Below, piece after piece: positions 1,438-39,632 of a stretch of DNA of 64,000 nt; within the stretch, counting starts at the first letter, position 1, and each line of letters starts with the position of its first letter. The DNA lies in assembly GCF_964213995.1 (NCBI RefSeq), contig NC_135804.1, positions 68,262,001 through 68,326,000 of the forward strand, read 5' to 3'. Origin of the DNA: Mustelus asterias. Taxonomy: Eukaryota. The position numbers and the translations under genes are program-made. The notes under the pieces were generated by a model that saw only the letters and a list, made by a program, of their open reading frames with translations, made no database searches and was not told the DNA's origin.

Positions 1438-1740
1438 TTATGGATTTTTCCAAAAAGTAATCTGTGTCGCTATTATGGCTAGAAAACGATTCATAAGACA
1501 AAGCAATACCAATTTCTGCATTTGTCTGCTCATGCACATTGTCATGTAAAATTTTGGCGACAGAATCACAATGAAGTTGTATTGGCTCACATGAGTTTTG
1601 ACACATTGATCCCTATATTTAGAAATGTTAGATGATGTTTCCTCTCGTCGTAGATGGTCTCTGCCGTTAGCTTTTAGATTATTCTCTGGTAACTGAACAT
1701 ATCCTGATCTCTGGTTCTTCAATTTAGCCGTTTCTTTTTC
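1438..1740 (-). CDS. Gene A candidate terminal cytoplasmic exon (EKETAKLKNQRSGYVQL...)
   Basis: Acceptor tctcttgcag| at 1741, phase 0, open to stop at 1438; SxYxxL (SGYVQL) and SxYxxI (SQYNFI) motifs; AATAAA on minus strand at 1390-1395. Confidence 0.4.
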   Translation of the reverse strand, partial: EKETAKLKNQRSGYVQLPENNLKANGRDHLRREETSSNISKYRDQCVKTHVSQYNFIVILSPKFYMTMCMSRQMQKLVLLCLMNRFLAIIATQITFWKNP

Positions 1741-4700
1741 CTGCAAGAGACGAACAATTCTAATGCGGCATATGTGAGATCGGTGTCTACTGTGGCGTGT
1801 TTTATCTACAAAGCAAGTGGTGGGAAATCCAATTAGCCCGTTTGCGTCTTCTATTCTCTTGCTAATCAAAGAGTCAATTACAATTCAGAATGTTGACATG
1901 TAAAGCGAAATTTCTCCTGCCCCAATGATGAGCGTTTTATTATTGTTTCTTCTCTACTTACATGGGCATACACTGTCACATCCTCTTGGCACTTTAGTCC
2001 CTCAGTTTTCATTGACCTGGTCAAAGGTTAATGCAACGTAAGGAGCCATCTCATTTTCTGATCTCTGAATTAATTGTAAAATGATTAATGTTATCTGGTG
2101 TCTTCATTAGCGGATTCATACTGTTGGCTGTGCATTGTACAACGAACGGAACAAACTGTAATACTAAATCCCGAGGAGCAAACTGAAATGCTACCAGTTA
2201 AAATTGGTTTCCTTACGTCTCTCAAATTTAACTGCATGTAATTCGTTCATTATATGTTATACTTCCTTTCCAATACACGTCGTACATAGGTAAAATACAT
2301 TATCGTCATGTAAGTTATCTCTTCGTGCTGTTTGGAGGGGCATAACAAAAACTTGCATTTATCAGGTAATTTGAATGCAATTATATATTCTTAAGCACTT
2401 TACAGAAGTATTATATTAGTAAACAAAATATGAAACTGATCACAAGTAATTATTGGGACTAAGTTAGATTGAGGCACCATCCTTAAGGACGACATCCAGA
2501 CTTGGTTGGCAGTTGGCAAGTAGGGAAAGCAGTAGCGTGGTGGTATTGTTGTTTTACTAGTAATCTAAGAACCCTCTTAATGGGCTGGGAACCCAAGTTC
2601 GAATCTCAACACGATGGTGAAATTTGAATTCAATAATAATCAGCAATTAAAAGTATTATGATGAACATGAAGCCCTGGTCAATTGTCATAAATACCGTCA
2701 CTGATGTCCTTTAGAGCAGGAAATCTATTGTCATTGTTTGGTTTGGTCTGCATCAGAGTCCAGACCCACAGCAGTGTGATTCACTCTTAAATAGCACGAG
2801 GGATGGGCCATAAATGCTGGCCCGGCCAGCAACGTCCAAATGCCATGAAGGAATTTTTAAAAATCGGGACACGTGCCAAATAATGACGATCTCTAACAAG
2901 GGAGCATTTAAGCATCATACCTTGACATTCAATGGCATTACCATTGTTGAATCCCCCCACTATCAGCAACCTGGGGATTAGCATTGCCCAGAAATTGAGC
3001 TGCAGTAGACAAATAAATACTGTGACTACGAGAGTGGATCAGAGGCTAGGAATCCTGCTTGGAGGAAATCACACCCTGACTCCCAAAAGCCTGTCCAACA
3101 CCTCCATAGCACCAGTCAGGACTGTCATGGAATGTTCTCCACTTATCCGGATGAGAGCACAACAATGCTTAAATATCTCCATGCTATCTGGGAAAAAACA
3201 GCCCGCTTGATTGGCACCCCATTCACAAACAACCATCAACCATTTACACTGGCAGCAGTATGCACCATCTACAAGGTGTACTGCAGGAACTTAGCAAAGA
3301 TGTTTAGGCATCACCATCAAAACCCATGACCACAATAAGTAAGAAGGAAAATATCAGCAGCTACCTGGGAACACCACCTGGATATACCCCACCAAGTCAA
3401 TCAACATAATCTTGGAAATGTATCACATTCCTTTCTATCACTGCACGAAATCCTAGAACCTGAAGAATCCTGAAGAGCACTGTGGATGTATGTACACTGC
3501 ATGCACTGCAGCGGTTCAAGAAGCAGATCACTTTTGAATGACAATTATGAAAGGGCAATAAATGCTGGCTTGACCAGGTATGCCCTCATAACATTAGAGA
3601 ATAAAAGACAGAAATATGTTTGGAAAATTGTGGACGTTTAGGGAAGGAATTCAAGAGCACATAATCTTAGCTGCTGAAGAATGATCAATAATGATGAAGA
3701 GATTAAAATCAGTGATACTCAACGGACCAGACTGGGAAGAGAGCAAATAGTTCAGAGCACTTCTGTGAAACAGGAAAAGATTACCAATACATCCGGCCGA
3801 TGGTCTTGGAGGCATTTGCAAACATAAATGAGAATTTTAAAATCGAAGTATTGCTTAACTGAGAGGTATCATAGATACGTTTCCAAACGTTGATGGTTGA
3901 ATGAGGCTCAGTGAGAATAAGGCCAAAAGAGCCAGATACTTGTATGGTTTCAAATTTATGAAGGTTGGAAAGTGGGAGGCTAGTTACAGATGTATTGGAA
4001 GTCTCCTGTTCATAAAGAAAGTGGTGTGTTTCAGAAGCAGATGGGCTGAGGCAGGTATGGAATCAATTGGTTTTGCGAAGGTCCAAACAGGCACTGTTAG
4101 TGATGGTGTTGATATGTGGCTGGAAGTTCATCCTGGAGAGAAGTGTGACAGCAAATGTGAAAACAGTCTGGTTCGACCACAGACAGTGGGCAGGCAGACA
4201 GATCAATTCGGCTGCTATGGACCAAAGCCTGCAGTTCAGCATGAAATCATTGACTTCATAGAATTATAGAATCAAGTCTGCACCACCAAAAATCCTACCC
4301 AGGCCGTATCTCCGTAATCCCATATATTGACCCTGCTAAACCCCTGACACTAAGGGCCAATTTAGCATGACCAAACAGCCTAACTCGCACATCTTGGGAC
4401 TTTGTTTTTTTCCCAATATTTAATGTGATTCATTGAATCCTGTATTGGAATTCGGAAAGGCAGCGTAACAATTTAGACCAAATAGCGAAGCCGAGAATAA
4501 GAAACGATTGCCGGGTACCCCCAGTGTACTTATTCGAGCTGACGTTATATTTCTGTTGTTTGCACCAACATGCTGGTGAGAGACGGGTACGGATGTGGGG
4601 ACGAGGCGAGATCCTTGAGGTCAACGGAGATAATGATGCAGTAGTGCCAAGAGAAGACACTTCAATTGAGTCTATAGTTATGTTTCAATCGAAACAAATT

Positions 4701-7700
4701 GTACCAGAGTATGTAGTGTGAAAAAGCCAGACGACGGTGAATGACCGGCATACACGTCGAGAAAGATGGACGAAGACAGCTTAACTTTGTGACAGTCATG
4801 TCGGACGTCATGTATCACTTTGCGAAGAATATTTTCATATGATGCTGGAGAAGAAAGCTGATTGAACAGATTTAAATGGAAAGATATGCACAGTAGGTCC
4901 TTAGCACAAAGGCCAAACAATGCCTGAATGTGTTTTGCCGGTGCATATGTCGGCATGTCTGTACATTAAACTTTACGTTATTGTTACTGCCTGCATTAGA
5001 ATTGTTCTACGTGCATCTGAGGGAAACATCCAGAACGATATGTGGAGACAACAATACATTTTGGAAAGAAAAACATAGAATTTTCTTGCCCATGTTTGAA
5101 AATGTATTTTGAAACAGTTTTCCCTTCTGAAGTAATGTGAGACATTTCAGTATCATAGATAGTTATATCTACCAAAGCATATCATATTTAATCTAATCGC
5201 CAATTTTATGTTAATACGGAATGAATAATAACACTTACCTGATTGGTTGGGTGTTCTGTTCTCTCCATGGAATTCACTTCTCCTGGTCATTGATAAAATT
5301 AAATTGTTCCCATTATCTATTTGTTAATATGCTTGCCCAATATTCCAAACCCATCCCAGGTTAGGTTTAATCGACAGTATAATGTAATGCCCTTCTTAAG
5401 GGCAACTAGAGATAGGCAATAAATGCTGGCCAGCCAGCGACGTCCATGTCCCCCGAATGAATTTTTAAAAATGTAATGTTCTGTTACACAAGCAAAAACT
5501 TATTAGGTAGTACCATTACCCAAATTGCCATCTCAGGCCTTGGTCAACGTTTTGATTTCAATTCCTGTGAAGTTCCATGTGGTGAAGCGACTTTTACCAG
5601 TAATAAACTTAAAGCCTGAAGTTAGGTAATAAATCTTATCTGATCTCCTAATGGGCATGCACTTTGTATTAGATAGAACCATCAAATTACTCCAAATAAA
5701 TATGAACTTTTAAAATTCAAAACGAGAAACTAGTTCCCACGAAGTGAAGGAAATCTCTGCCCCTCGCTGCAGCGGAACAAACTCGGAGGCAAAATTTCCA
5801 GAGTGGCTTGGTGTCATTAGCCAAACTAAATCGCATCCATTTACAAGGGAGCAGAAATAAACTAAAATTTAAATTTTGGTTCTCATGGTGCTAAGGCGCC
5901 CTGACATGCATCACTGCCGAATAAATACTTTAGAAATTTAATTTGCATTTTGATACAAGGAAATGTTGCCGCTATTTGAGCACGGAAAGCTCTCACATGC
6001 AGTGATGTGATAAATAAGCAATTAAATTGACCTGTCCTTGTCAGGTTGGAGATACACGTTTGAAAGGCGGCCGAGAGACTTTTCTGGCTCTCTCTCAAAC
6101 AGCGCCATGGAATATTTTACATGCACTTCATCCAGTAGATGAAATCTTAGTTCAGGGTATTATCTGAAATCAATCCCTCAGTTCTGCACTCGTTTATGTG
6201 TTTCGTGCTCCAAATTATTAATATGAGTTTGGAGGGCAGCCAATTGGACAAGCATATTAGCTTACTTCAATGCTTCCCGATATGCCCTCATCTTATCAAC
6301 GAAGTATAAGGAGGTTCCATTGGAAATGAAATCAATTGCACTATTTCCTACCTTTACATTTTGTTACTGGATGTATCTTCCTCAAAATTATCACGAGCAA
6401 TAGAATCATGATTCCACCTCCTGTGGATCCATAGACTTGTGTGTACCACAGTACATTGTCATCTCCTGTAAAATGAATATTAGAAATAAAACTTGAGGTT
6501 CTACCAGTGTTGTACATTCCCACCCTTCTGTCTCGCCTACCATCGTTTCAAAATTTCACTGTCATTGAGTTCCATTAAAAATAAAACGACTGCTAAGCAT
6601 GGCATGAGCCTTTAATCTTTCTTTTCAATTTCAATTCCTAGTTCAATATACATAAGGCAATTTTAATACTGCAATTTTGAAAGGCCGATTTCTTCACTGC
6701 CCATGAACAATACTCAAAGAGATCATGTTAGCAATTTAGCATTGGACGAATGATACATTGCACCTAACCAAGAATGAAGTACAAAATATGTTTCCCAGAT
6801 TAATTCCCAATTTTGGTTAGCCTGTTATGCTGGTTCGACAATACAACATGGTGACTTTTACTGCAGCCCGAATTTTATTTACAGCATTTTGTAACTTAAG
6901 TTAGATTTTGAACCCATCATTGTCAGATCAGTATTCCTGCCTACTGGTTTCTACTCCCGACCAGAGCAAATGCATTAACGTAGCCCAGATTTTAAGGAAG
7001 AAACTTTTAACATAAAATTGATTTGCTGACAGCTTTAGATCTGGTTAGTTAATAAATCCACATTATTAAATATTGAAATGTCACTGATGTATTTTGAAAA
7101 GAATGTGGAAAAATGGCGAGGATTGTCCATGATATTAGAGATCAAGTCCGCCTCAATGATAACACTCTCGCCTCATGGGACGAAGGAAGCGACTTGAAGT
7201 CCTTCTTCTGTTGCCCATCAAAATTTGAAAATACATCAATATCCCTTCACTGGAGTTTGGTCAAAAACCTGAAAGTTTCTATCAGTACAGCATTGTGGAT
7301 GTACGTTGGCTAGCTAAATTGCAACACTTCAAAAGTATGTGCACAAAATCTTTGGAGAGAAACAGGGATAGGAAATAATTGTTGGTCTTGTCAATGACTT
7401 GCAGAAGTTAAAGCAAAATCTAAGTACGAATATTATCTTGTTATTTTTTAGCCCGAAGATGAATTCTTATCCAATGAAAATATGTATTCATCAACTGCCC
7501 TTTTTCATTCGTCTGAACTTTTTTTGTACCTCCAGTGTTATTTAAAATAAATCGGTAGGCGACGGCCATTCGAACGTTGAGATGAGATGATTCGCAGGTA
7601 TACGTAGTCGCGTTTTTAACAGGATGTGCTTCTTCCAGAGTGCTGGAAAATTCGTATGGACCCCTAATATTGAGTTGTAGGACTGTGCTTATCCCGATCC

Positions 7701-10700
7701 CAACATTCACGTCATTGTTATACCAAGTAATAGATATATTCCCAGGGTAAAATTCAGCAGATTTACACAGAAGAATCAGAAAAGCCGACGCATTACGTTC
7801 AATCTCACGCCAGTGAATCCGGAGTGGAGTTGGGGGAACTGTGGAACAAGTTACAAAAGAGAGGAAAACTCGATGATGAAAACTCAATGGTGGATCAGCA
7901 TCGATGCGAAATGAATACTTTGTACGGAGCAAATGGGAGGTTCATTTAGATAAGCATTTGACTTTTTTGGACTGTGTGACTAACAGACCATGCTGATCTT
8001 ACATACCACAACAAATTAAAGATTACCGGATAGAAATTTACAGTGAGACACTAGATGAGCTAAAGAATAATATCGTCAGTAGTGATGGAACATCTATAAA
8101 TGCAAGATAAAACAGGATGGAAGAATTTGAAATTATTTTATCAAATAAAAAATTTCAACATGATACACGAAACATATAAAACATTCAATCTCAAATGTGG
8201 TGTGAAATTCTTCATATATTACAGGGCTACATTTTTTTGAATGAAATAAAGATTGAATCATGATGAATTTGCTGAAATGCTGTTCACAACAGCACACCGC
8301 ACACCAGACATCTGAATTTGATATTTTTAAGAAATGTGCAGGGAGAAGATGTAACAAACTCAAATTCAGATACAGCTCTGAAGTAAGGGTAAACGGGAGG
8401 CTAATTTGAAAATGCAGTGAAGAATCGTTACTTCTATAGGTCACATGGAATGCATCTAATCAGCATCGTGATTGAAGTTCTTGCGGGACGATTTGCTCGT
8501 GCTATTGGGAAATGTTAAAATTAACTTACTGAAGTTGTAGGAACAAGGAGGAATTTTCGCAGTTGAATGCTGAGGTGATAGAGAGAAGTAGAGAAGAAAT
8601 GATGAGTAAGAGAGAAAATATGAGTCTAAATACTGATTAATGTGCATGAATCTAAATATGCTGTGCATAGTTCATAAAATTAGTAAATTGCCGGTGCAGG
8701 TTGCTGTTGCGGCCATAACGGAGACCTGACACAAAGGGAAGGGTTTGGTGTTACGTATTTGTAGTATAATTGTTCGGGGATAATATGGAAGAAAGAGGAA
8801 GCGTGATGGTATTGATTAAGCAAAGTATTGTAATCCTGGAGGATATCATAAAATGGTTAAGTGAATAACTTATTTTGCTGGAGCTAAAGGCGGTGCAAGT
8901 ACATTTTTCGATGTAATCCAGAGGACACCAACGAGTTGACGGTATGTAGAGGTACAAAATTGTGAAGAAATCAAAGGTATGTGCAAGAATTAAAGAGCAG
9001 TTTATAATGAGGGAGTTCAATTATCGGAATATAAACTGGAATAGAGGTAGTGCAAAGGGGCAAGAGGGGCAACAATCCATAGAGTGCGTTGAGGGCAATT
9101 TTCTGCAACAGTATGTTTCCATCCCTATGATAGTAGCGGGATGTGGGAACTGCCTTTGTGAATGAGGTGGACAAGTGGATCAAATATCAGTCGAAGAACA
9201 TGTTGCGGAAAGTTTTTGTTTTATCATTAGTGTAACCCCCTGCTGACAACTATATGCTCTGACCAGCTGAGTTAAGTAAAGCAATACCTGGGATGTGCTT
9301 GATGTTATAAGGGGCTACTATGTAAATGTTCAATTAACAGGATCCTGAGTTCTTAGCGGTTGGTGTTGAGCTAGGCTAAATTTCCTATTTACCAATAAAT
9401 GTCAGTACAGGCGTCAATCAAAAGGATTAGTGTATGCAGTTGCAAGCTAGAGTAATAACCTATTAATAATAGCATGGTGCCTCCTAAACTGGTAAGTATG
9501 TAACCCTTATAATAAGAAAAGGTTCAGGACAACCATGCAAAAGGAATAACAAAAGTGAATTTATTTTCTTGCATTGTTGCGTCTCAGAAAACAGGTTAAG
9601 AGTCCCAAACTAAAGATTTTTCAATTAAACAGTTTCAACCCTGAGAAATGTTCAAAATATTACCAAGCACTTGGATTTATAAACGTTGGGGCCCATACGT
9701 TGGTGCACATATGAAGAAAACACACCCTCAACAACACAGTGCTGATACCGTTCAGTGTCTGATAGTATAGTCTCCAGTTACTCATGCAACCACGACACAC
9801 ACAGTCCAGAAGGGTCTGCGAGCAGGAAGATGATGCAGCAGGAATACAAAATGCAGCAAGCTGTCAGCGTAGTGGTGCAGGTCCAGTGCACTGAAGTCTG
9901 TCCTCCGAGGCAGTGCTACTTAGCAAGTTAGCTTCAGCTAATCCTCATTCTCTCCGTCTTCTCAGTGAAAATTACGCCCGGCGTTTATAGCTGACTGTCC
10001 CTCACCGGCAGTTTCTAGCATAAACGTCGACGCTTGAGAGTACAAGCTTTACACTTTTACTCAACAGTAATGAAAATAACAAACAGGACTAAACCTTGCT
10101 GCCTTTCACTTCAAACTGGAAAAAACGAGTTACTAAACTGTGATAAACACGAGCTTTAACTCCACTGTAACATATGTGCCATACTGTGAAGTATGTTAGT
10201 GTACAAATATTATTTGCCTCGGCGTTAAAACTGGGTTTTTATCGCATGGAAACAGATCCTCTTTCCCACGTGTGTCTGCCCACTCCAGCTTCCTCTGTCT
10301 CCCGCCGTTTTTCTTTTTCCCTCCCCCTAAGTAAGCTGATTGGCTTAAAGTGCAGCTCTCTCGAAAACGGATTGGCTCAGCTTACATCACTCAAACAAAC
10401 AGTCTCTGTTCACGGTACTTGGCCCAGTAAACAGGATATTGAAACTCACAAGAAAACAAAGAACAATGGTAAATGTCTTTTTCATTAAATTTACCCATAT
10501 TTCAAGAAAACATACTCTTTTCATTTTTCTTTCATTTATCCTTTTTTCAGGCCCCTACATAAGGTTTAGAGTGGCAATAGAAAAAAGAGAATAACAATTT
10601 AAATTAAGATTAATTAACTGTCAGAAATCCGACGTCAATGGAAAAGAATTAATCTGGACAAAATAAGGTGGATCAAAGCTTGGCAGGAAAGAAAAGCTAA

Positions 10701-13700
10701 GCAAACATTCGAAGCAATGGTAGATCGAGCAGTGTCATCCAATATCCCCTCGAAATGGAAATATATGTTAAAGCTGCTCTCTGGATGACAACAGAGGCAG
10801 AGGTTAAGATGAAGATTGAAAAGAATTATACGCGTATGACAGATGTCAGGTGGATAATATAATGGAGAACCAGATTGAATATAAAAAGTTCAGACGTGGA
10901 GTGACAAAGCAAATCAACAGAAGCAATGAAGAAGTGTGAAAAGAGACTGGCAGATCAAATAGAAGGAATACAAATATATTGTGTAGGCATATAAATAAGA
11001 TAAGTTTGGTAAAAGAGGAGTTGCACTGATTGCAGGCCAAAATGGGAATTTGTGCTTGGAGACCAGAGAGGGAGGGGCTGAGGAATTAAAGAGAGGAAAT
11101 GATTTAAGATTGATAAAGAAGGTGGATTAGGTAGACTGTCATACTTAAATGCACCAGGGCAGTATGAGATGTATGGAAGGATACTGAGATAGGTGTGAGG
11201 GTAAATGGCAGATGCACTGGTTATAATTTTCCAATCTTTCGCAAATCAGGGATGGTGGCAGAAGGCTAGAAATTTGCCAATTGAACATTTGTTCAAAAAC
11301 GAGTTGAAAGATCATTCCAACAACTCTTGACCTTGCAGTTGAACTTCCGTGGAGGGAAAACTTCCAAACGCAATAACGCTGTTCAACTGTGGTAAATTTA
11401 GAAAAAAAATCAGGACGGATTTTTTCAGGGAAAATCGTGTGTCACGAACTTCCTGGATTTTTTAAAGAATTAAGAGAGGGTTGATGAGTGAAATTTTGTT
11501 GAAGTGGTCCACATGGATATTCAAAAAAAATTGTAATACTTTTGCATAACAGAACTGTGAACAAACTCAGAACTATTGTAATAAAAGGGAAAGTAACAAC
11601 ATGGATACAGAATTGACTGAGTAACAAGAAATACGGAACACCAGTTGATTTTTTTTGTTTTTTTTAAGGCAGGAGAAACATTTGTATTGGAGTTCCCCGC
11701 GTGTCAGTGTTGGGACACTATATGCATTAATAACACAGGTTTTGGTGTACAAGGCACTATTTCACCATTTGCGGATCAAACACAAACATGAAGCAATGTG
11801 AAGTTTCAGAAGGATAATTAGGAACCTTAAACGGGGCATATAGAAGTTTGTGGAAAGGGTAGGCGCCTGCCAGATGAGCGTCAATGAAGAGAAATATTTA
11901 TTCATATTGGTAGTAGAACATAAAGGGTACAACTCTGATGCAGACACCGGAGCAGGGAAGATCGATATATAAATGCCTAAGTCATTGACGATGGCGGAAT
12001 GAGAGATGTGTAAATAAAATATACAGTATCCAAGGCATTCTTAATAAGGACATAGAATAGAAGAAAAAGTTGTATACGTTGAACATGTCTCAGGCATCGT
12101 TGCGACCTCAGATGGATATTATATTGAGTTCTGGGTACCATAATTTAGGAAAAATATGAAGACATTGGAGAGAGTGCGGAAAAGATTCACGAGAACGATT
12201 CTTGGGTTGAGGAATTTCATTTAAGATGATACAAATGTCTGGACTATTTTCCGTGGCAAAAAAGAATACTGCGATGAGATTTGATCGAGGTATTTAAAAT
12301 TATCAATGGTCTGAACAGAGTATTTCAAGAAAAAGCCTTAAATTAATGAAAGGTTGGAAAAGGAGGCGGGATAAATTTAAAGTAATTCGTAAAATAAGCA
12401 AAACCGACACGACGAAATTTTTTTTCACGCAGGGGATGATTCAATTCTTTCACGCAGGAAAACTTTTGACGCCAGGAGGTTCAATCACAGCATTCAAAAT
12501 AGAGTCAGATTGCTATTTGAAACAGAAGGGTGTAGGGACAAGGAGGGAAAATGGCAATCGTGTGTTGCTCATCAAAGAGCTGGTGATAGCACGACGAGTC
12601 ATATCGCCTCATTCTGCGCTGTAACAAATCTGTCATGTCTGTCATTCTGAGTGAGTGCCCCTATGGGCGGCACGGTGGTAAGTGGTTAGCACTGTTGCCT
12701 CACAGCACGGAGGGCCCGAGTGCGATTCCGGCCCTGGCTATTGTGCGAACGTCCGCTGAATTGCCGATAAGTGTCCCAAGATGTGCGAATTAGCAGGGTA
12801 AATACAGGAGGTTGCGGAAATAGGGTGGGCTGCTCTGCCGAAGAGTTGGTGCAAATTCGAATTGCTTCCTTCTGCACTGTCGGGAATCTAGGAATTATCT
12901 GCATTAATTTGTCATAAGAGTGAAATGATTAAATTTTACCATTGAAAGTCGAACAGTCACCCTCGCTAAAATATATTTAATTATTTTATTCGTATCACAA
13001 GTAGGCTTACATTAACACTACAATTAAGTTACTATGAAAATCCCCAAGCCGACACACTCTGACACCTGTTCAGATACATTGCGGGAAATTCAGCAGGGCC
13101 AATGCACTTAAACAGCACATCTTTCGGACTGTGGGATGAAAGTGGAACACCCAGAGGAAACCTACGCAGACACGTGAGAACGTGCAGACTCCGCATAGAC
13201 AGTGACCCAAGCCGGGAATGAACCGTAGACCTCTGAAACTGTGAGGCAGCAGTGCCAAGCACTGTGCCACTGTGTTTAACTAAATCCAGAAAACAATATG
13301 ATACACTTCTCGTTCATTTAGTGCATAGAATATATCTACGTAAATATAGGTATTGAAAATGATTTTAGCCTTGATTCCAAGTAATATAGTATATGAGTCC
13401 TCAAAGTATATTCAGAAAAAAAATCTTACCCAGCATGTTGTTGGCTTTTGTGTGTGTATGTGTATGTCTCTGTCTGGTGAATATGTTTATGTAGCCATTC
13501 CACTTGCCATTGACAACTAGCTTTGATCCAGTCCCATTTGCAATCACACTGTCAGAATGTTTCACTCCGCAGTAGTAAACTCCTGAGTCACCACTGCTAA
13601 TATTCAGCAGCTGTAAAGTGGCCTCTCCTTTTTTCAAGTTTCGTGTTCTGTTGTCTTCACATGACGGCAAAAATTGCTCTTCTCCTAATTTCCACCAATG

Positions 13701-27782: not shown

Positions 27783-28595
27783 CTAGTTTAAACCCCCCCG
27801 AACTGCATTAGCAAAGCTCCCAGCCAGGATATTTGTGCCCTTCCAACTTAGTTGTGACCCCTCCCTCTTGTACAGGTGCCATCCTCTCCTGAAAACCTCC
27901 CATTGGTCTATGAAAATAAAGCCCTCCCTCCTGGACCAGTCCTTTAGCCAGGCATTCATTTGAACCAACTCCCTATTCTTATCCTCACTGGCACGAGGCA
28001 TTGGGAGCAGCCCAGAGATGGCCACCCTAGTGACCCTACTTTTTAACCTATTTCCCAACTCCCTGAATTGCTCTCTTAGGACCCCCCTACTCTTCCTATC
28101 TACGTCATTTCCACCAATGTGTATAATGACATCCGTTTCTTTATCTTCCCCTTTTAAAATGCCTCCTATCCGCTCGGAGACATCCGTGACCCCAGCACCA
28201 GGTAGGCAGACTACCATCCTGGAGTCCCGTTCGCCCCCACAGAATCGCCTGTCTGTCCCTCTAACTGACGCATCCCCCACCACTATCGCTCTCCTAACCC
28301 CTCTCTTCCCTTTCCGGGCCACAGAGCCTGACTGTGTGCCAGTGACCTGGTCACTGTGTCTTACCCCTGGAGAGGCACACTCCTCCACACTATCTAAAAC
28401 AATGTACCTGTTTTGGAGTGGGACAACCACAGGTGGCCCTTCTTCTAACTGTCCACTCCCCTCCCCTCTTACACCTGTCACCAAGCCCTTCCTATTTTGA
28501 GACACCTCTGGAGACCTCCCTTGTACTTTACCCTTCAGCCCTTTACTCCTCCTAACTGTGACCCACGTGTCATTCTCCCGATGCCCCGGTGTAAC
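27783..28595 (-). CDS. CR1 ORF1 (SGNH/GDSL esterase-like), N-terminally truncated
   Basis: PLQNRY, IVVGDASVRGTDRRFC, VCLPGA and HIGGND blocks; the first ~10 aa of the ORF-track call come from the flanking SINE. Confidence 0.85.
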   Translation of the reverse strand, partial: VTPGHRENDTWVTVRRSKGLKGKVQGRSPEVSQNRKGLVTGVRGEGSGQLEEGPPVVVPLQNRYIVLDSVEECASPGVRHSDQVTGTQSGSVARKGKRGVRRAIVVGDASVRGTDRRFCGGERDSRMVVCLPGAGVTDVSERIGGILKGEDKETDVIIHIGGNDVDRKSRGVLREQFRELGNRLKSRVTRVAISGLLPMPRASEDKNRELVQMNAWLKDWSRREGFIFIDQWEVFRRGWHLYKREGSQLSWKGTNILAGSFANAVRGGLN

Positions 28596-28820
28596 TTTCC
28601 TCTGGGTGCTCCGGTTTCCTCCCACAGTCCACAGGGGGTATGCGGGTTAGGTACATTGGCCATGCTAAATTGCCCTTTAGTGTCCCGGGATGTGCAAATT
28701 AGACAGATTAGCGGGGTAGAAATGTGGGATTACGAGAATAGGGCTTGGCTGGGTTGTTGTCGGAGCAGGCTCAATGGGCCGAATGGCCTCCTTCTACACT
28801 GTAGCTATTCTATGACTCTA
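28596..28820 (+). mobile_element. SINE 3' half
   Basis: Continuation of 24199-24323; ends gggccgaatggcctccttctacactgtag...ctatgactcta. Confidence 0.85.
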
Positions 28821-29139
28821 TCAAGAGGAATGATTAAAAGTAGTCATCTACGTTTTGAAGAGTATTGACTGAAGGGAATCCGATTGAGGTGTTGAGGTTA
28901 ATAAAGGAATCGATTATGTTCCAGTTCCGATTTTTGTTCTAATTAAATCGGTTCGGTGAAACGCATGGCCATCATTTAAAATCTACGTTGAAAGAAGTCC
29001 TGCGAAGGCTTGATTGAATACATGTGAAGCGGCTTATTCGGCAAGCCGTAAAATCCACAACAGTGGCCATAGTTCCAGATAAGAGATGAATGAGCATTTA
29101 GGGGTACGATGAGGGTAGGATTTGTTCACTCACATAGGA

Positions 29140-29770
29140 GCAACTATTTGAATTTTTTATGCAAAACGTAGTCGATACTCATTTTTTGAGCATCTTCAAG
29201 ATTGAGATCGACACGATTTTGTAATCTATGGGAATCAAATTGTATCAAAGTGGAGACTTGATTAATGATCGGCATGATCAAACCGAATGATCGAGCCTGG
29301 CTGACGTCCCATACTCTTGCAGACATTCCTTACAAGATCATAAGAATCACAATATCCTATGAAAGAGGGGCAAAATTCTGCCATTCGATCCATCGAGTCT
29401 GTTCTACTCTTCAATGAAATAATTGAGGATCCGATTGTCACAATAATCCACATTTGGACCGGTTCACAATAACCGTCCATTCACTTGGAAATCAGAAAAA
29501 AACTATCTGAAGCCCTGAATTAATTTAATGAGAGAATTCTAAGCACAAGCGGTCTTAAAGGAGAAATCCCTCCTCATTACCGCCTTAAATGAAGTATTCA
29601 TTATTTGTAAACGTTGTGCCATAGTTGTGGCATCCCCCATGAGGAATATTATTTCGGAAGAATCTATCCCTTCACCTTTCATTAGAAACATGTATGTTTC
29701 AAGAAGATAATCTCTCATTCTTGTAAACCCTAATGATTATAGTCTCGACTTATAAATACTGCATCCTTGA
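29140..29770 (-). mobile_element. Old CR1 3' fragment
   Basis: cataagaatcac...gccattcgatccatcgagtctg tail remnant; degraded. Confidence 0.55.
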
Positions 29771-30959
29771 AGGTGGTATTGTGTGATAGATGTTGATGCA
29801 CTGAGTTCCTTCAAAGGTGATTGAAACCTGTTTTTGATTGAAGAGTCCATTTACACTTAGAAAATATAGCGATTTCGGGTATTTATGCAAGAGCGATTTC
29901 CAAGGTTTCTTTTGATCATCAAGTTGGCCAATGGATCACCTCGCCCACATTTGAACTGGCATTCTATCTGTTTGCTCACTAGCACCAGAAGAGCACGTAC
30001 TTTCCTTTCGGCGTTAAGTGTATATATTGTAACAAACAATGTTTTACAACTGCCTAGGACAGGATGAATGGCCCACACGTTTTTAATTGTCTGATTTTAT
30101 TGGCAGGTTCGTATAAAAATGTTTAAATTCAGCAATCTGAACTTCATCCAAAAACCTTTTTGATTAAACAGTGTTTTCCCAGCACTGAGCAACTTGTTTC
30201 AAAGGCAGGACTTTAACTGACCGATCATTGATATTAATTCTCTTGAATATATGGCCACAGGTTTTGAAACAATACGGTGCGAGAGTACTTATGACGTTTG
30301 GACGATAGACAAATCAAATCATGTTTAAACTTGTATCCTAAAGATAGATTAGAGAATTTAAATTGCATTGGATGCACTGAAAATGATTATGTACTCTGCA
30401 CCAAAAGTGATATTTGCATTTTTGTCAACCTTGCTCATTTCGAAATAACTTCCATCGATTGTGAAATACTTTAGGGATAAGAATTTTAGGGTTAACTAAT
30501 AAAAATGGTTTTGAACAGAAAACTTAGATAAATAATATTGAAACTCATATGATTCCGTTTTGGAGCATGGCAAAGGAATGTTACAAAAAAATCTGTCAAG
30601 CATTATAGGAGTACAAAATAATAGCAAATGCATCCACTCCAATACTTTTCCTCACATGGGTCCAACAGAAATATGCATCTACACGTCATTTAAACTACAC
30701 TATTGCTGGTGATTTGAGTTGTACTATTGAGTCTACTTATAACATCATTTCAGTCTCCAGATAATTCAATTCTAGATCATAATAAATCGCAGAATTCCTA
30801 AAACGTAGAGCAGTGAAGGTGGGCATTATGTTCAACTATTCGACACTGAAATATATTTTCCGTTGGTAACTCGTCCCATCCTTGCTCATCCAACTCTTTC
30901 AGTGTAACCACATATACCCTTCTACTCTGCAATTAGGCAAATTCAAAGTTGTTTTGTGA

Positions 30960-32065
30960 ACGGAACCATATCTGATGACTTTTTGAGTTTTTGGAGGAAG
31001 TAGAAGCGACATGGACAAAGAGGAACTTGTAGATGTGTTCTACTGAAATTTCCAGAAGACATTCGACTCGGTGCCACATCAAAGGTTACTACAAAAAACA
31101 AAGAGATCATAGTGTAAGGGGTATTATGTTAACATCTATCAATGATTGACCAATAATCGGAAGCAGAGAGTAGGCATAAATGGCTCATTGTCCGCCCTGC
31201 AAAATGTGGCAAGTAGAGTGTAAAGGGATCAATGTTGGTGTCTCACCAATTCGCAGCTTATTGCAGTGACTTGACTGAAGTGATGGTTCCTAGATTTGTT
31301 GAAAATGAAAAGAGTGGTAGGAACGTAAGTTCTGAACAGACGTTAGGAATCTGCTAAGGGATATAAGTAGGTTAAGTAAGTGGGTAAAAAAAAACTGGCA
31401 AATGGTGTATAATGTGAGAAAATGTGAAATTGTCCACTTTGGCAGAAACTATGAAAAAAAACAGAGATTAAGGAGGTAAGTAAATTTTTCACCTTTATTG
31501 CAACTGGAACACAATATAAATGTAGCGATGAATTCCTGCAGCTCTCTACAGTGTTGTTGAGCCTACACCTGGGCTTTTGTGTAGAGTTTTCGTCTCCATA
31601 ATTTAGAAACCATTAAATAGCTTATAAGTAGCTCAGGCAAGATTCACTCAACTGACATCTGAGGTGGGAGAAGTGGGTATCTTATGAGAAATAGTTGACC
31701 AAGCTGATCCTTCATTCATTGGAGTTTACACGATTGAGAGATGATCTCATTTAAGCATACAAGATCCTGCGTGCAGATTCCAGGGTGAAGATTCAAAAGC
31801 TGCTTTCCCTTGTGAGAGAAAATGCAACTCGTGGACAGAAATTTGCAAAACTAATTCTTCCATTTCAGATGGAGATGACAAGTTTCATTTTTCTCTCTTG
31901 AAGTGTTGTGAGTCTTTTCCAGAGAGAGGTAGATAAAAGGTCTTTGAACATTTTAAGGCAGAAGTAGATATGGAACTGAGGCCCCAGTCACATCATCCTA
32001 TTCAGTGGCCGAACAGCGAGTGGGAACGAATTTGTGAACCTGCTCCCAATTCGTATATTCGTATC
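30960..32065 (+). mobile_element. Old degraded CR1 RT/C-terminal fragment
   Basis: gtagatgtgttctactgaaatttccagaagacattcgac..gtgccacat and aatgtgaaattgtccactttggcag remnants. Confidence 0.7.
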
Positions 32066-32454
32066 AACGAGTGGGAAGAGCTTAGCCTTCTTCCGTTGGC
32101 GAAGGAACAGAAAATACATTTCTGAAACTTTGGCTAAAGAGCAGAAGACCGTCATTCCGTGTTAGAGAGATCAATGTTCGACTCGGGTCAGCTACCTCAT
32201 CACACTGCTGGACCGGCAAACCATTCCCAATTGTTAAGAGTCGCAGGGACTTCCTGTCCATTTGGCTTATGCGACATATCTATCTGCTGCTCTTAAACCA
32301 ACCCGCGTTGTGGGTAATTATATCAACCTGAGGAGGAACGTTCTTCTGAGGAAAGATGGTCGCAAACATGTTGAAATAATACCAGCAGTTACAGATTAAG
32401 GCAGAATAATAAGGCGGTTGCTGTGGAGGCCAAACAACGTCTCGTGGGTGCCTA

Positions 32455-32765
32455 GTTTACAGAATCCCTACAGCGCAGAAGGGGGCCAGTCAGTCAATCG
32501 AGTCTGCGCTTCGAAAGAGATTTTTTACGCAGAACCCCGTCCTATTCCCGTAACACCCGCGCATTTGCCATGTCTGATCCACCTAACCTTCACGTCTTTG
32601 GACAATAAGGGGCAATTTGCCATGGCAATCCACCTAACCTGTGGGAGGAAACCAGAGAAGCCGGAAGAAACCTGCGCAGACACCACGAAAACGTGCAAAC
32701 TCCACACCGGCAATTACCGAAGGGAAGAATCGATCCTATCCGCAGTGCTAACCATTATGCCACAG
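32455..32765 (-). mobile_element. tRNA-derived SINE
   Basis: agaatccctacagcgcagaag tail; gtgggaggaaaccagag core. Confidence 0.75.
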
Positions 32766-35008
32766 TGAAGCTGCGTTCGCAATTTCTGACGTTTATAACG
32801 TCGTAGAACCACAGAGAGCAATGGAACATCTAATCAGAAAGAAGGTTGTACTTCATAACCACAAGGACAATGTGGTTGTCTCTCCCACCGATACTGTCAT
32901 GAGGAAACGCATTTCTGACATGGAGAATGATGACTATGCGGCCCATTGGGCTTTGCCTTCGGGCAAATTTTCCAACAATTTGTTCTAGACTCATTCTGAT
33001 CGAAATGTCCCTGCAACGGACCTTAGGCCAGTTGTTCTACCATTTTATAGTTCCACACGTCCTTTAATATCGAAGGAACGTGGCATTTTCCAAGTCATGC
33101 CAACTGAACCACAAAAACTTTAAACGATCATGTTGAGGGCATAGCAATGTTCTTAACTGCTCAATTTAAATAACTGGAACAAAAATTAGCTCATCCTGGC
33201 AATTAATAATTCAATCGTGTCATGATGCTCTTCAGTATTGTAAATTTGATTTTAAAAAATGATCGTAATACGATGCCTTTCCTTGGCATGGTATAATTTT
33301 CTTAAACTGTGAATGCGGACGCAAGATACATGTTTAGTTTCTGTGCGATTTCCTTACTTTCATTTGCAATTTCACAGTCATCAGTTAGCATGCAAAAAAA
33401 ACCAAATTAGTCATTCGCATCCACTACCCTCTAATATATTTGCACAAGTTCGTTTATGTTGACTTTATAAACTCTTGCATTTTTTAACATGCCTACCTTA
33501 TCACCGTTTGAGATTCTTAATTAACCCTATTCCAACATTTTGAAATTAGTTTTTTTCCCTTTAATGCCGGCAGCAATTTTTAAGTTGAGAATAGCTATCT
33601 TCATGTATCGATTTGTTTTGCACGAGCTATCAAATGTCCTATTCCTGCTCCAAATTGTATTCATGCTTTTATGGTCAATGGATTCAACCAGATGAATTCG
33701 GAAACAGTCTTTCGATAGGCTTAAGATATTCGCAACATTTTTAATTGATCATAGGATTTTCGACATACACTTGACAAAGTCGATATCTTGTACCATTGTT
33801 TCTTTCCAAAAATGCAAGCACCTCTTTACCGATTCATAATTTCTTAACCTCAGCTGATGACCTTGGGAAACCAGCGGTATATTGACAGGATATTTGCCTA
33901 CGCAACATTCTTTTTCAAAATTCAGTCAAATCAAGCCACAGAGTAAATCATGTGGCATAAATAAGGTTGAGACAAATGTCGCTCACCATTTGTGAAAATC
34001 GGACCGCCGTTTCCGCCGAAGCACAGTTAAAGTCACGAATTTGCCGTCCAACAGACCATACTTTCAAAATTTACGCAAATATGTATCATTGTTGGTCTTT
34101 CGACTCATATACCATTAGCAACATTACGTTGCTGAGTTTACTTGATATATTGAAATTGAATTCAGCACGAAAGAAATAGGATTTATCTATTTTAGTGCTC
34201 GTGCTATTTAAGTGGCGTCGTAAATCTCAAACTACCAACCGAATGCTGCAAATGATTTTTGTATGTGTCAAAGATTGATTTTCAGATTCGAATTACTGTC
34301 ATCCACACTATTCACAATATCCGGTGTCCAATGTAACGCTTCATTCAAGCTTGTTTTGTAGCACATCATAAAATCCCCGTTACCGTCCGCAACACCTATA
34401 ACAGTACTGATCACAGACATTGACGAAGTGGAAATTGTGCAGCTTTCTGCCCTCTGCAACACATGTTCTAATTGAAATGCAGCGGAAAAGTTGCTGCACC
34501 AGTTTTCCATTGCGTTAATGCAGGCAAAGCGGGACTGTTGCAAAGGATTTCCAATGTGTGCAGTAGCCTATCAGGACAAAGTTGTTTTATTGTCTGACTC
34601 TTTAACCTGTTTGACATTAGGTTGAAATCTCCTGTCAACGTTAAAAACATTATGGGCCACCTTCGTCACCTAAGCGCTTTCCCATGGATTTTCAACAGAA
34701 ATTTGCAAAAAAAACCTATTGCAATTTACAGCGCAAATGAAGTGCAGGGGTCTATATTCTATACCTTGAGACCTATGTAAGCAATTAACAGTCGTATGTC
34801 CTTAAACAAAAAATGTTCGAATATTTTATATCTCCAACAATAACTAAAACTTCAAAGAATTAGCCTCCCCAAACTACAAATTCAGTGCCAGAGAGTTTGT
34901 TTATCAGTAAGATTTAACAAAACGCGTTTACGGTGTATTTTTATCGGTATTGACAAGATCCATTTTTTCCTGGTGAGATTATTTAGTATAAATGAGATAG
35001 TAGAACAC

Positions 35009-35919
35009 AAAGAACAAAGAACAAAGAACAATACAGCACAGGAACAGGCCCTTCGGCCCTCCAAGCCCGCGCCGCTCCCCGGTCCAGGATTGAATCCTGA
35101 ATCCAGGATCCCCGCCCAATTTTCCAGCCTATCTACATCCTAATATCCTATCCACCGAGCTGTCCCTCACAGCTACGATGCTTTGTTCATCACAACCTAT
35201 TAACTCACCCCCATCCCCCCCATTCCAGACCATGTGATCTCCAGGGAGAGGCGAAAACCCAGAGTGAAAACCCCAGGGCCAATATGGGGAAAAAAAATCT
35301 GGGAAATACCTCTCCGACCCCCTGAGGCGATCGAAACGAGTCCAGGAGATCACACTGGCCCTGATCGGAAAATGCTTCCCAACCCTATTCATTTCCACTT
35401 CCATGAACACCATATGAATTCCCTGCCCCCGAGACAGGTTCCCAACTATCCGCAGTCTCGCTCTGTACTGGCACCAGCAAGATGATCATAGAATGAAGCC
35501 TTGAAACGAGAAACAAAGAACAATTAGCCCGCGCCGCTCCCTGGTCCAAACTAGACCACTCTTTTGTATCCCTCCATTCCCACCCCGTTCATATAGCTGT
35601 CTAGATAAGTCTTAAACGTTCCCAGTGTGTCCGCCTCCACCACCTTGCCCGGCAACACATTCCAGGTCCCCACGATCCTCTGTGTAAAATATGTCCTTCT
35701 GATATCTGTGTTAAACCTCCCCCCCTTCACCTTGAACCTATGACCCCTCGTGAACGTCACCACCGACCCGGGGAAAAGCTTCCCACCGTTCACCCTATCT
35801 ATGCCTTTCATAATTTTATACACCTCTATTAAGTCTCCCCTCATCCTCCGTCTTTCCAAGGAGAACAACCCCAGTTTCCCCAATCTCTCCTCATAACCAA
35901 GCCCCTCCATACCAGGCAA
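35009..35919 (-). mobile_element. Young CR1 3' fragment, same long-3'UTR subfamily as 24324-28595
   Basis: Near-identical ORF2 C-terminus and 3' UTR module. Confidence 0.95.
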
Positions 35920-36830
35920 AAAAACACCCATCACACAATGTTATATACTCGAATAGAATGAGTCAGCCGCCAAGATTCTATCGTCAAGTAACGTTTGGAG
36001 GAGCAATGCAACCCGGAGAGCAACTACTTGTGAACGAGACGTAATGGATGGTGTACCAGAGGGATCTATGCTGGAAGCTCAACTGTTTACAATTCATATA
36101 AATGATTATAAGGAGTGACTGAAAGGATTTTTCAAATTTGCTGGTGATCAACCATGATTTTATGAAATGGCCGAAAGGCTCTAAGGGACTGAATGATCTG
36201 CTCCTACTCCTTGTTCACATGTTATTCATTTGCGAAATTAGCCCTGAGGTGTGTTCGGCGAAAGTTTATGGCTATTTTGAGGTATATGATTGTGGGATAA
36301 AAGCCTTACTGATATGTACATTGCAGAACTTCAGCCCATTAGCACACTAAGTAATATAGCATCATAATTCTCTGGCATATTATCTGTTTGTTGACCCTGT
36401 CTTTACAAGAAGTAGCGATGCAACAATGAGGTACAACTGACCCAATGTTGCCCACAGAGATTTGCAGAGCGACTCAGTGTATATTTCCACCAATTAAGTT
36501 CATTTTGCAGCGTTGCCCACTTACCCGGGAATCTGTGGAGTTTGCGAAAGGGCAAGTAACAATGAAGTTCAGCAATGTTTGCAACATTGCTTTCATCAGT
36601 TAAAAATGCGCCGGCTATTTTTTAAATTTAGTGTGTTGTCAATTTCTGCAGCAAATCAAGTTATTTGTTTTTGTCTTCCGATCGGTACATATGTATTACG
36701 AACTATTCGATGTTGCAAGTACCTTGAAGCAAAATATCTCATTTCCGAAAACAGAATGACCGGATGATAAACGTCACTGTGACGGCTTCCATATTAAAGG
36801 AAATTAAACGTGCATTTGTTTGACGAAGCT

Positions 36831-36880: not shown

Positions 36881-36935
36881 ATGTTGAATAATAAGTTGGT
36901 CCTGTGTTTCACTATCGTGGGGATAATTCATGGAG
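36881..36935 (+). CDS. Gene B leader exon (MLNNKLVLCFTIVGIIHG-A)
   Basis: acaATG, hydrophobic core, GGAG|GTACCT donor phase 1. Confidence 0.75.
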
Positions 36936-39630
36936 GTACCTGCTTCTTTTCTGTCTTGTGTCTCTCAACATAAACTTAAATATTGTTTCTTTCACAGATA
37001 TGAACATATATCTACATTGAACTTTCGTAATCATTCTCCATCCTCTATACCCCCTCCCCCTACCCCTACCCTACCACGAAACATTCCGCAAACCCCTTGA
37101 GATTTATAAAGTCAATTTTACAGTATTTATAATTAATTGTTTCAGCAGGTACTTCAATTCGAGTAATTCAACTTCCTGAAAGTCTGACAAAAATCCAAGG
37201 CACAACTGTCACTTTTCATTGTTCTGTACCGTACCCTCCAGACGACTCGAATGTGACCTTCAACTGGTTGAAAGAAGGCGAAAGTCAATATCTGAGTACA
37301 GCCGCCGATCACCGAAAGGTTTTCGGCTCCAAAACCACATTCAGTGGCTTTCTTCGCATCACCAATGTAAGCTTTCAGGATGCTGGAGTATATTACTGCT
37401 CGGTGCAACAACGTGGCTACATAACTGGAAACACGATTGGATCTAATTTAACTGTATGGGGTGAGTATCGAGATTTTGCAGAATGCATTATGTGATTGCG
37501 ACTTATAAAACAGACCAAACATCAGATAATAATTGCAATTATTAGATCAAATCATTATATCCACGGGACATTGGAAGATTTAAGAATTAACAATAGAAAG
37601 CACGAGCCATTTCATTTAGACATTCAATTGCCTGAAAGGGTAAACAAAAACGTCGTCCAGGATTTTGGAAAAATGAAGAAATTACAGAAAATGCTGCAAT
37701 TGGTTATCAGAACTGGCAGCATCTGTCGAGGGATGATCAGAGCTTCGAGTTTGTCAGAACTGCCAAAATAGCCATTAGATTATCATCTGAAATCGCGTGC
37801 AAGATTTCCTATCGTAGTGAGATATCCCAGCAACGTCCAGCGAACCGACAACAAGGCCGGTAATACAATACCTGAAGCTAGCAATAACACATTCAATTTT
37901 TCAGTTAAATATTAACTACTGAGATTGCTACAAATATCGATCGCGACCATTTTCTCTACAATGTAACTTGCAGAACTGTGATATTCGTGACTGTTGCTCT
38001 GTTTGTAACAGTCAGAAACGTGTGCAGAAAGAAATTCCATTCCAACAGTCTCGAAAACTGAAAATGTCCTCGTTTGCAATATCGCCAGAAATTAAATCAG
38101 TTCTTCTCGTCCGATCCACACATAGGTTCTATTTTTAATTTCTTTAGAATCATTAAGATTCGTAGGAATATGACATGTTCCATACATCATGTGTGATCAC
38201 AAGCACTCGGTAATAATCGTTTGTAAACTTTTTTAAAAATAAGCTCTGATGTGACATCAGAGTGTCATAGATTTTATTTTATGTTCTGTTTTATAGCACC
38301 TCCAAGCCAAGTGCAAATTCTCCCCAGTGATCCTCGAAGCGATTCATCCGTATCCCTTGTGTGTCAGGCGACCGCATTTTACCCTGAAATTATTGCACTC
38401 GAATGGTATAAAGGTGATATCGAAATTTCAACTGGGGTGTCTGTCTTAAAACAGCAAAACTCAGACGGATTGTACGAAGCTCGCAGCTTTTGGGAAGAGT
38501 CGCAGCCTGCTCCGATTGGAAGTGTTTACAGCTGTCTGGTCTCTCATGTTACATTGGAAACTCCATTAGTTGTTACGCATGTCATTACATATTCTAACGC
38601 AGGTACATATCTAACAAGACAACCGAGATAGTCAACTGTCATTAATACCTTACCGGTCAGAAAGGACAACCACTTAAATCAATACAAAGTACAATACACT
38701 CTCAATCTTAACCAAAAGTTCTGCGCATATATATAGAACAGCAATCCTTGACTCCGTTTTAAACGGTCTTTATTTGCATATTTTTATAAATTTAATATTA
38801 TGTGGCTGGATTTTTAGACACAACGGTGTGGTTGGGATTGGTGCAGGGAATGATTGTCGCATTTATCATAGAACAACAGCGAACTGGCAGCCCACACTTA
38901 ATGTTATTTTTATTTGACTGTAATCTCTTCAATATAAAGAGGGCACCACAATTTAAGGACGGTGTCCATGTCTTAAAGTGGTTGCACAGTGGTAAATAGA
39001 ATGGTGTCAGAACTGAAGATTTCAACGACATACAGAAATTAGATAAACTACGATTTCCCCCAGTTAATCGAGCAGCCTATGTTGAGGCTTCAAATAATTA
39101 AAGAAAAACATGAGAAATTACAATAAGCATTACCCAGTGACAGAATAAATTGTAATCGGAAGATACCGATCTAAGATCATTGATAAATGACCCACAGGCG
39201 TCAGAAGACGGGAGGGGGGGGGGGGTGGTTCGTGGGGGGGGGGGGGGGGAGAGAATGGAGGGGGGGGGGGACGTTGGTGAGAGGAATGGTGATGGTATGC
39301 ATCGAATTGTTATAAAACAGAACACTCCGCCTGAAGAGTCATCGGAGCCGGTGAATATATGGCTCTAACATGAAAGAAAACCAGAGATAATAAGTTCGCT
39401 AAACTTGCCTGTTAAATGTGCAATTATAGAAAGCACGATTGAAGGTGAAAATATGTTTGCTTTGTGAGCGGTCAATGCACTTCATAATATTTGATCTTTT
39501 CTTGAATATTAATTTTGTAGACAGTCAATTCTCCCGTCTTCTGCTGATTTCTGGATGTATTGGATATGGTCTGATATGCCTACTCTTCAGTTTCTTAATT
39601 TGGAAGCGACGCCAATTAAAGGATTTGTAG
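36881..39630 (+). CDS. Gene B: paralogous non-rearranging VJ-C1 transmembrane IgSF receptor with short tail (multi-exon span)
   Basis: Four exons join in frame; exon sizes and motifs parallel gene A. Confidence 0.8.
37146..37460 (+). CDS. Gene B Ig V-set (VJ-type) exon
   Basis: ttcag|cag NAGNAG acceptor, G|GTGAGT donor, 315 nt phase 1-1; VIQLPES..TVTFHC..FNWLKEG..FLRITNVSFQDAGVYYC..GNTIGSNLTV. Confidence 0.9.
38297..38602 (+). CDS. Gene B Ig C1-set exon
   Basis: ttttatag| acceptor, CAG|GTACAT donor, 306 nt; SLVCQATAFYPEIIALEWY...YSCLVSH. Confidence 0.9.
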
Positions 39631-39632
39631 AG
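39521..39632 (+). CDS. Gene B transmembrane exon (DSQFSRLLLISGCIGYGLICLLFSFLIWKRRQLKDL*)
   Basis: ttttgtag| acceptor, AG|GTAAGC donor; 112 nt (one more than phase-preserving); TAG at 39628-39630. Confidence 0.8.

Follow-up and report, generated by a model that had tools for sequence, protein, structure and literature searches.

A multigene family of germline-encoded VJ–C1 genes in the shark Mustelus asterias, probably a paired-receptor system of cartilaginous fishes

The window analysed here is the whole of a 64,000-nucleotide (nt) stretch of the Mustelus asterias genome (3.68 Gb), at 68.262–68.326 Mb of contig NC_135804.1 (C4 in what follows). It contains two divergent genes, A on the minus strand and B on the plus strand, each composed of a leader exon, a single exon for a V-set domain with its J-like strand (VJ), a C1-set exon and a transmembrane (TM) exon, joined at phase-1 junctions. 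With a probability of about 0.72, A and B belong to a multigene family of chondrichthyan paired receptors that are encoded in the germline, possess a VJ + C1 rod and undergo birth-and-death evolution. An earlier note on this DNA, made from its letters alone, had proposed a chondrichthyan paired-receptor family of non-rearranging VJ–C1–TM genes; the proposal is borne out by about 58 genes, with what appear to be real inhibitory/activating pairs. A and B themselves are peripheral family members.

A search of C4 with the V domain of A, in which all 129 candidates were scored, gave 60 rows for 58 distinct exons: 28 at 58.8–60.0 Mb, 29 at 67.7–70.0 Mb, where the window lies, and one at 54.66 Mb. 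The C1 domain of B found at least 58 C1 exons on C4 among the best 150 of 363 candidates. DNA was compared for 43 family gene regions, and TM exons could be placed in 33. Eight of the 33 encode an Arg, 16 uncharged residues and an Asp, in most cases with a stop codon soon after; among these eight, two have a His within the stretch, two have Asn in place of Asp, one belongs to a pseudogene and one to a gene with no located V. Tail exons with motifs resembling immunoreceptor tyrosine-based inhibitory motifs (ITIMs) lie behind 13 of the 43 gene regions within the DNA compared; some are broken, and those of genes 58.96 and 58.79 are free of stops. The ITIM-tailed gene 58.96 and the Arg-type gene 59.87 are 95% identical in V and 96% in C1; for the ITIM-tailed gene 58.79 and the Arg-type gene 59.56 the values are 92% and 97%. 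Near-identical ectodomains with opposite signalling modules indicate that the family probably contains true paired receptors. One activating TM lineage is attached to several ectodomain lineages, which suggests exon exchange or gene conversion.

Three types can be distinguished in the sequences. Type i has an uncharged TM and a multi-exon tail with two to four ITIM-like motifs; type ii has one ancient TM exon, encoding the Arg, the 16 uncharged residues and the Asp, with a stop right after; type iii has an uncharged TM and a very short tail. B would be of type iii, and A of type i, with its tail decayed. By analogy with SIRP-alpha, type i may recruit SHP-1/2, while type ii would couple to FcR-gamma or CD3-zeta like NxxR-type receptors; two zeta/FcR-gamma-type TM exons are present in this genome, and NxxR itself is found in P0086 and gene 67.63. 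Like SIRP-gamma, type iii might serve in adhesion or as a decoy receptor. The V domain presumably binds a cell-surface ligand on targets of leukocytes, and near-identical pairs of types i and ii could set a threshold or counter pathogen decoys.

Some members and regions of C4 stand apart. A segment of roughly 0.7 Mb occurs twice (68.0–68.7 vs 69.3–70.0 Mb; about 95–97% identity, offset 1.35 Mb), and several of the second copies are broken. The isolated member at 54.66 Mb has a PWWIY TM and a tyrosine tail of non-ITIM type, and shares 66–86% identity with proteins of catshark, horn shark and basking shark; it looks like a conserved framework gene. Two C1 exons at 67.63–67.65 Mb are separated by about 9 kb; the second is followed by an Arg-type TM, and no V could be located. 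They may belong to a member with two C1 domains or be remnants that lack a V. The clusters are flanked, at 70.06–70.11 and 54.62 Mb, by frames resembling gag, pol and env of endogenous retroviruses.

The family is distributed across cartilaginous fishes. Chondrichthyan proteins made up 22 of 23 and 42 of 46 named matches, the remainder being CEACAM, MCAM or multi-V proteins. Sharks, rays and Callorhinchus all have members, which usually lie on a single long contig in each species. A HMMER scan gave 217 proteins at E ≤ 1e-30; among the matches listed (150 of 217), the closest named bony-vertebrate rows were a lungfish SIRP-gamma-like protein, a lungfish V–C1 protein read as B7-H6-like and a lizard protein read as SIRP-like. 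No family relatives in bony vertebrates were found among the named matches, in a partly named list and with word-based searches of low sensitivity. When 108 database proteins, all of them predicted models, were classed by pattern, 28 had two or more ITIM-like motifs and 10 had one; an Arg-x15–17-acid TM was present in eight (one doubtful), a short neutral tail in 10 and a long tail without ITIM in 22, while no TM was called in 30 (some of these being misses). At least six misleading automatic names hide the family, among them NCR3LG1-like, CD276 homolog and Ig lambda-like; NCBIfam gave 0 matches for three proteins.

In phylogenetic trees the family forms one clade, with support of 97/96 for V, where one long-branch NCR3-like row is drawn inside, and 94/85 for C1; in a reduced V tree without the NCR3-like artefact the support is 94. 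Rows of SIRP, PRARP-like, B7-H6-like, immunoglobulin (Ig; IgL and NAR) and UrIg-like sequences fall outside the family in both trees, which contained no T-cell receptor (TCR) rows; outgroup names such as NCR3-like and B7-H6-like were given by eye from motifs. Approximately unbiased (AU) tests of possible sister clades gave p-AU values of 0.21 for SIRP, 0.37 for PRARP-like and 0.57 for B7-H6, and they do not resolve the sister group because only about 100 alignment columns were available.

Directly beside the first cluster lie exons of AMFR (G2BR; C4:58.687 Mb) and BBS2 (58.649 Mb). Further markers on C4 are five classical cadherin tails, a pair of C/EBP-like genes, three FOX genes, one ZFHX-like gene and three IRX-like genes. 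We take this gene set to be the human 16q/19q13.11 block (AMFR/BBS2 corresponding to 16q13), and assume that the 16q block is paralogous to human chromosome 20, where SIRP lies. The family locus thus appears to be in a 16q13-type block, away from loci of the MHC (major histocompatibility complex), B7-H6, PRARP and SIRP types; the MHC or MHC-paralogous synteny considered in the earlier note was not found. Direct anchoring by neighbour genes applies only to the 58.8–60.0 Mb cluster; samples of the flanks of the window's cluster (67.7–70.0 Mb) contained no identified host gene, and a MARVEL search had no C4 match. POU-class genes at C4:84.6 and 110.1 Mb suggest that the distal arm is a different block. 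Exons of the SEP domain (NSFL1C type) occur on C20 and C7 only, with none on C4; NSFL1C presumably stands beside the SIRP locus. B7-H6-like C1 exons are found at C9:109.2–109.4 Mb and an RPS13 exon at C9:108.6 Mb, RPS13 being, as we assume from human 11p15 synteny, a neighbour of B7-H6 (NCR3LG1). NCR3-like V exons and class I-like exons are on C8, where several single-exon NCR3-like V genes lie near class I-like exons at 7.1–7.5 and 20.4–21.1 Mb. A separate small VJ–C1–TM group at C17:70.76–70.92 Mb includes one V with an EIPPP loop, whose TM has an Arg; it is about 2 Mb from a CD3-zeta-type exon and is a candidate shark PRARP/VJC1. A lone tapasin-like C1 exon lies at C4:33.93 Mb.

These data bear on the possibility that the family is the cartilaginous-fish SIRP proper, that is, moved co-orthologues that lost one C1 domain and bind CD47. 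The ITIM-tailed, charged-TM and tailless types on a V + C1 ectodomain mirror SIRP alpha, beta and gamma (PMC12975943, excerpts). In a sequence search of solved structures SIRP-alpha was the best non-antibody match after UrIg2 (8e-28), and in a feature search SIRP clusters were at or near the top overall, with SIRP-alpha clusters first for P0030 (0.96). The clade of family and SIRP is not rejected by the AU test, and no SIRP-like match was found on C20 among the best 150 of 616 candidates. However, the family has one C1 domain rather than two and excludes the SIRP rows in both trees; a lizard SIRP query matches Ig C1 exons better than the C4 genes, the SEP-domain marker is not on C4, and the activating TM is of the Arg/FcR-gamma rather than the DAP12 type. 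An identity with SIRP is therefore unlikely, and a distinct chondrichthyan paired-receptor family is preferred.

Within the window, both V exons pass the curated Pfam cut-off for V-set and both C exons that for C1-set, and the leader, V, C1 and TM exons described in the earlier note hold. The exons and the interval between the genes are as follows (window positions).
15066..15111, minus strand: gene A leader exon (tblastn to P0030/P0173; possible earlier in-frame ATG at 15135)
13508..13813, minus strand: gene A single-exon VJ domain (Pfam V-set)
7530..7838, minus strand: gene A C1-set exon (Pfam C1-set; weak donor, lost in the duplicate copy)
6352..6465, minus strand: gene A TM exon, uncharged type, phase-1 donor (61% identity to the P0030 TM region)
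5239..5282, minus strand: gene A cytoplasmic exon 1 (44 nt, against 45 in the duplicate; aligned by eye to the P0030 tail)
1962..2064, minus strand: gene A cytoplasmic exon 2 (103 nt; APYVAL, then frameshift and stop at 2004–2002)
1638..1805, minus strand: gene A last exon, decayed ITIM pair (tblastn with P0030; untranslated under orthologous splicing)
36881..36935, plus strand: gene B leader exon (spliced model matches RefSeq)
37149..37460, plus strand: gene B single-exon VJ-like domain (Pfam V-set; tandem acceptor 37146/37149)
38297..38602, plus strand: gene B C1-set exon (Pfam C1-set)
39521..39630, plus strand: gene B TM exon with 8-residue tail and stop (splice donor 2 nt downstream of the stop)
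16638..35940, no strand: A–B intergenic region (many copies of long interspersed element (LINE) reverse transcriptase, repeats resembling short interspersed elements)

In both genes the G strand sits within the V exon, as had been claimed, and a phase-1 donor comes after it; the J-like character of the strand applies less well to B, which has no GxG motif. The V exon of A has a GC donor (GT in the duplicate), a two-residue deletion and an extra Cys. The four-exon splice product of B is identical to the RefSeq model P0011 (XP_078066428.1, 260 amino acids), labelled Mustelus asterias and automatically named ‘SIRPA-like’; a further RefSeq isoform, P0172, is longer by one residue at the tandem acceptor. 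Under the RefSeq pipeline a second isoform presumably implies spliced reads. Contigs from three sequencing runs behave as genomic, with no spliced joints among those shown, and have no bearing on expression. No further family exon was found between A and B (16638..35940). Two young LINEs have open reverse-transcriptase frames, one of 982 codons at 24862–28646 (minus strand), with an ORF1-like frame (open reading frame 1) upstream, and one of 750 codons at 46457–48706 (plus strand).

The closest full-tailed relative of A is P0030 from Heptranchias, an ITIM-tailed protein that aligns in tblastn to the leader, V, C1, TM and last two tail exons of A. The second tail exon of A is entered in phase 0, and its stop lies 40 nt before the last junction; the remainder of the exon aligns with P0030 when read in a different frame. 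The last exon contains LTYAAL and SGYVQL in two separate reading frames, and SGYVQL, homologous to the last motif of P0030, is beyond the stop. The other motif of the long tail once ascribed to A, YENI (4844), has neither a P0030 counterpart nor an in-frame donor, and reads YGNI in the duplicate; that long tail is accordingly not retained. The frame shifts are also present in the 97% identical duplicate 1.35 Mb away, in which the C1 donor is lost and the first tail exon has gained one base. Genomic contigs across the shifts have no indel there; they probably derive from the source individual, so they exclude assembly error only. Given the tail frameshifts, their presence in the duplicate, and the GC and weak C1 donors, A is best read as an inhibitory-type gene with a decayed tail and one YxxL kept, which would now be a recent pseudogene or a truncated receptor with a single tyrosine. 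Possible tail exons of A at about 5020, 4844 and 2330 were dropped, as no relative matched them.

The 8-residue tail of B and the Arg of its SRLLL are both present, as reported. The same short tail occurs in the catshark protein P0018 and is therefore old. The Arg precedes a 22-residue uncharged stretch, and relatives with neutral TMs carry Arg or His at the same boundary. A tree of 24 TM exons places seven Arg-type exons in one clade (98/97), with A and B outside, and the 13 best protein scores of the B TM exon are all with neutral TMs. A complex prediction for the B TM and a shark FcR-gamma-type TM dimer scored 0.06 and was not used either way. The description of B as an activating, adaptor-coupled receptor is not supported: B is read as a tailless SIRP-gamma-like member outside the activating clade, and its coupling to an adaptor is given about one chance in five. 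In the duplicate of B, repeat-like sequence replaces the V donor. A possible tail exon of B at about 41600 matched no relative and was dropped.

It had also been suggested that A, as the inhibitory long-tailed gene, and B, as the adaptor-activating gene, make up a co-regulated head-to-head pair. The divergent layout is kept in the duplicated block, the short tail and boundary Arg of B are conserved in catsharks, the stop–donor geometry of B is as in activating genes, and A descends from an ITIM gene. Against this, the V domains of A and B are only 37% identical, the TM of B groups with neutral TMs and the tail of A is frameshifted. About 22 kb of repeats separate the two starts, and head-to-head orientation is found in 13 of 55 neighbouring family gene pairs, which is the chance level, so the layout has nothing special about it. 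The nearest non-duplicate V to that of A belongs to an Arg-type (Arg-x16-Asp) gene at C4:68.21 Mb, about 60 kb off, with 63% identity; this gene, not B, appears to be the nearest activating counterpart of A. An A–B pair is accordingly quite improbable, and the two genes are better regarded as separate members of the wider family.

A further reading takes the family as expanded B7-H6/B7-type ligands and not receptors. Several members are automatically named NCR3LG1-like or CD276 homolog. The predicted model of the relative P0003 (predicted local distance difference test score 80) is a V–C rod and best matches B7-H6 (Z 15.4, root-mean-square deviation 3.3, 187 aligned), with PD-L1 tied and butyrophilins about equal; in the C1 tree the family has a long-branched B7-H6-like C1 as its neighbour, and the joint clade is not rejected. 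Yet the top Z scores are tied among unrelated V–C rods, the B7-H6-like C1 exons lie on C9 near the RPS13 exon, and ITIMs and adaptor-type TMs are receptor features; a J-like GxG-T/S strand is present in 79 of 89 V domains (database proteins). The ligand reading is very unlikely on this evidence.

The earlier note had found no intact recombination signal sequence (RSS), and matches in the window are indeed at chance level, with one observed vs 0.88 and 0.78 expected; none lies within 400 nt of the gene B V exon, and the best one near gene A is inside a high-copy repeat. The best scores in 35 family V exons have 3–7 mismatches, comparable to random intron DNA; of six control V loci, three have 1–2. 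The length of complementarity-determining region 3 (CDR3) is constant in most family V exons, and the F/W position of the J motif is Asn in 68 of the 79 V domains. This Asn, at the end of family V exons, is of N-glycosylation type and could block V–V pairing. The single-exon VJ common to chimaera through rays, together with the prevalence of Asn at the J F/W position, argues against a RAG-joined origin, and nothing supports calling A and B ‘germline-joined’ if the term means a RAG-joined Ig gene. This genome does have, at C71:2.92–2.93 Mb, a NAR-like V exon that is germline-joined and precedes constant exons of IgNAR type. That the family consists of RAG-joined Ig light-chain/TCR genes, their orphons or direct relics of the RAG-invaded gene, as single-exon VJ plus C1, germline-joined Ig genes in this genome and some Ig lambda-like automatic names might suggest, is already largely refuted by the trees, with Ig and UrIg rows outside, and by a 16q13-type block rather than the MHC paralogon, and it is hardly credible given TM and ITIM exons, constant CDR3 length and no RSS.

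Several observations weigh against the paired-receptor reading and its assignments of A and B. The V and C1 of A look constrained relative to the duplicate (three nonsynonymous and three synonymous changes, and two and five, respectively; in both, nonsynonymous changes per site are the fewer), and A may be functional. The activating label came from the same TM sequences as the TM tree, and B shares with three activating genes the geometry of a stop followed by AG|GT. Most Arg-type TMs are without the Asn of NxxR. The best structural matches, B7-H6 and PD-L1, are ligands. The nonsynonymous rate is below the synonymous rate in 14 of 15 recent V pairs, with few changes; positive selection was not seen across these pairs, which weakens a simple reading as a pathogen arms race.

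Non-rearranging VJ genes have been sought as relatives of the RAG-invaded gene (PMC12227049, excerpts). Shark VJ examples in the literature, as far as excerpts of it go, occur singly or in small groups; the present family numbers about 58 genes and includes both signalling polarities. The family is a testable candidate for the system of polymorphic inhibitory and activating receptors on shark leukocytes; it also suggests that FcR-gamma-type coupling through an outer-TM Arg goes back to the base of jawed vertebrates. More tentatively, it might serve cartilaginous fish as their main germline-encoded natural killer (NK)/myeloid receptor complex and be the sister of SIRP by genome duplication, which remains doubtful; if true, a VJ–C1 receptor with ITIM and FcR-gamma/zeta signalling preceded the use of this architecture by Ig and TCR and was lost in bony vertebrates. 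No published description of the family was found; the key papers on non-rearranging VJ genes and their supplements may still mention the cluster. Term look-ups gave no mention of the family in the parts covered of PMC10529500, PMC3964593, PMC8455134, PMC7677710, PMC6795676 and PMC13262535, and the excerpts of PMC12227049, PMC10751288 and PMC11599192 do not mention the cluster. The family is probably undescribed, with about a one in four chance that the cluster has already been noted in print.

Among known systems, PRARP/VJC1 resembles the family in its leader, single-exon VJ, C1 and TM and in having no RSS; the better candidate for it is the C17 group, outside the family in the trees. NCR3/NKp30 has a J-like strand within a single V exon as well, and is, as we assume, without a C1 domain. 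With B7-H6 the family shares the V + C1 rod fold, on the model of P0003, and differs in its place on C4, the B7-H6-like exons being on C9.

UrIg and UrIg2 are also elasmobranch non-rearranging VJ + C1 genes; UrIg, however, is a secreted molecule with three C domains, UrIg2 possesses at least nine, and both are single genes linked to the MHC or to an antigen-receptor complex (PMC12227049, excerpts). The NITR genes of ray-finned fish are likewise clustered, with a single-exon VJ and a predicted NK function, but their second domain is I-type with its own J, whereas that of the shark genes is C1-set, and holostean clusters are flanked by runx1 and donson, the shark cluster by AMFR and BBS2 (bioRxiv 10.1101/2021.06.11.448072, excerpts). 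Excerpts of PMC12227049, PMC10751288 and PMC11599192 name UrIg, UrIg2, NKp30, PRARP, NITR and SIRP as joined-VJ genes, SIRP being listed among those of the Ig superfamily in PMC11599192.

LILR/PIR, NKp46, GPVI, Fc-alpha-R and Xenopus XFL resemble the family in the outer-TM Arg of activating members and in their expanded paired families, as described in excerpts; NxxR TMs associate with FcR-gamma (PMC2413239, excerpts). These receptors differ in having FcR- or KIR-like ectodomains, not VJ + C1, and the Asn is found only in some shark members. SIRP is similar in its V + C1-set ectodomain and its ITIM, charged-TM and tailless members. It consists of one V-set and two C1-set domains; its ITIMs recruit SHP-1/2, SIRP-beta has a charged TM and SIRP-gamma a very short tail (PMC12975943, excerpts). 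By contrast, A, B and nearly all relatives have one C1, and the shark family comprises about 58 genes in a different chromosome block, with an Arg-x16-Asp TM rather than DAP12 coupling. Judged by its sequences, the family would work like the SIRP and LILR pairs but departs from SIRP in domain count and position.

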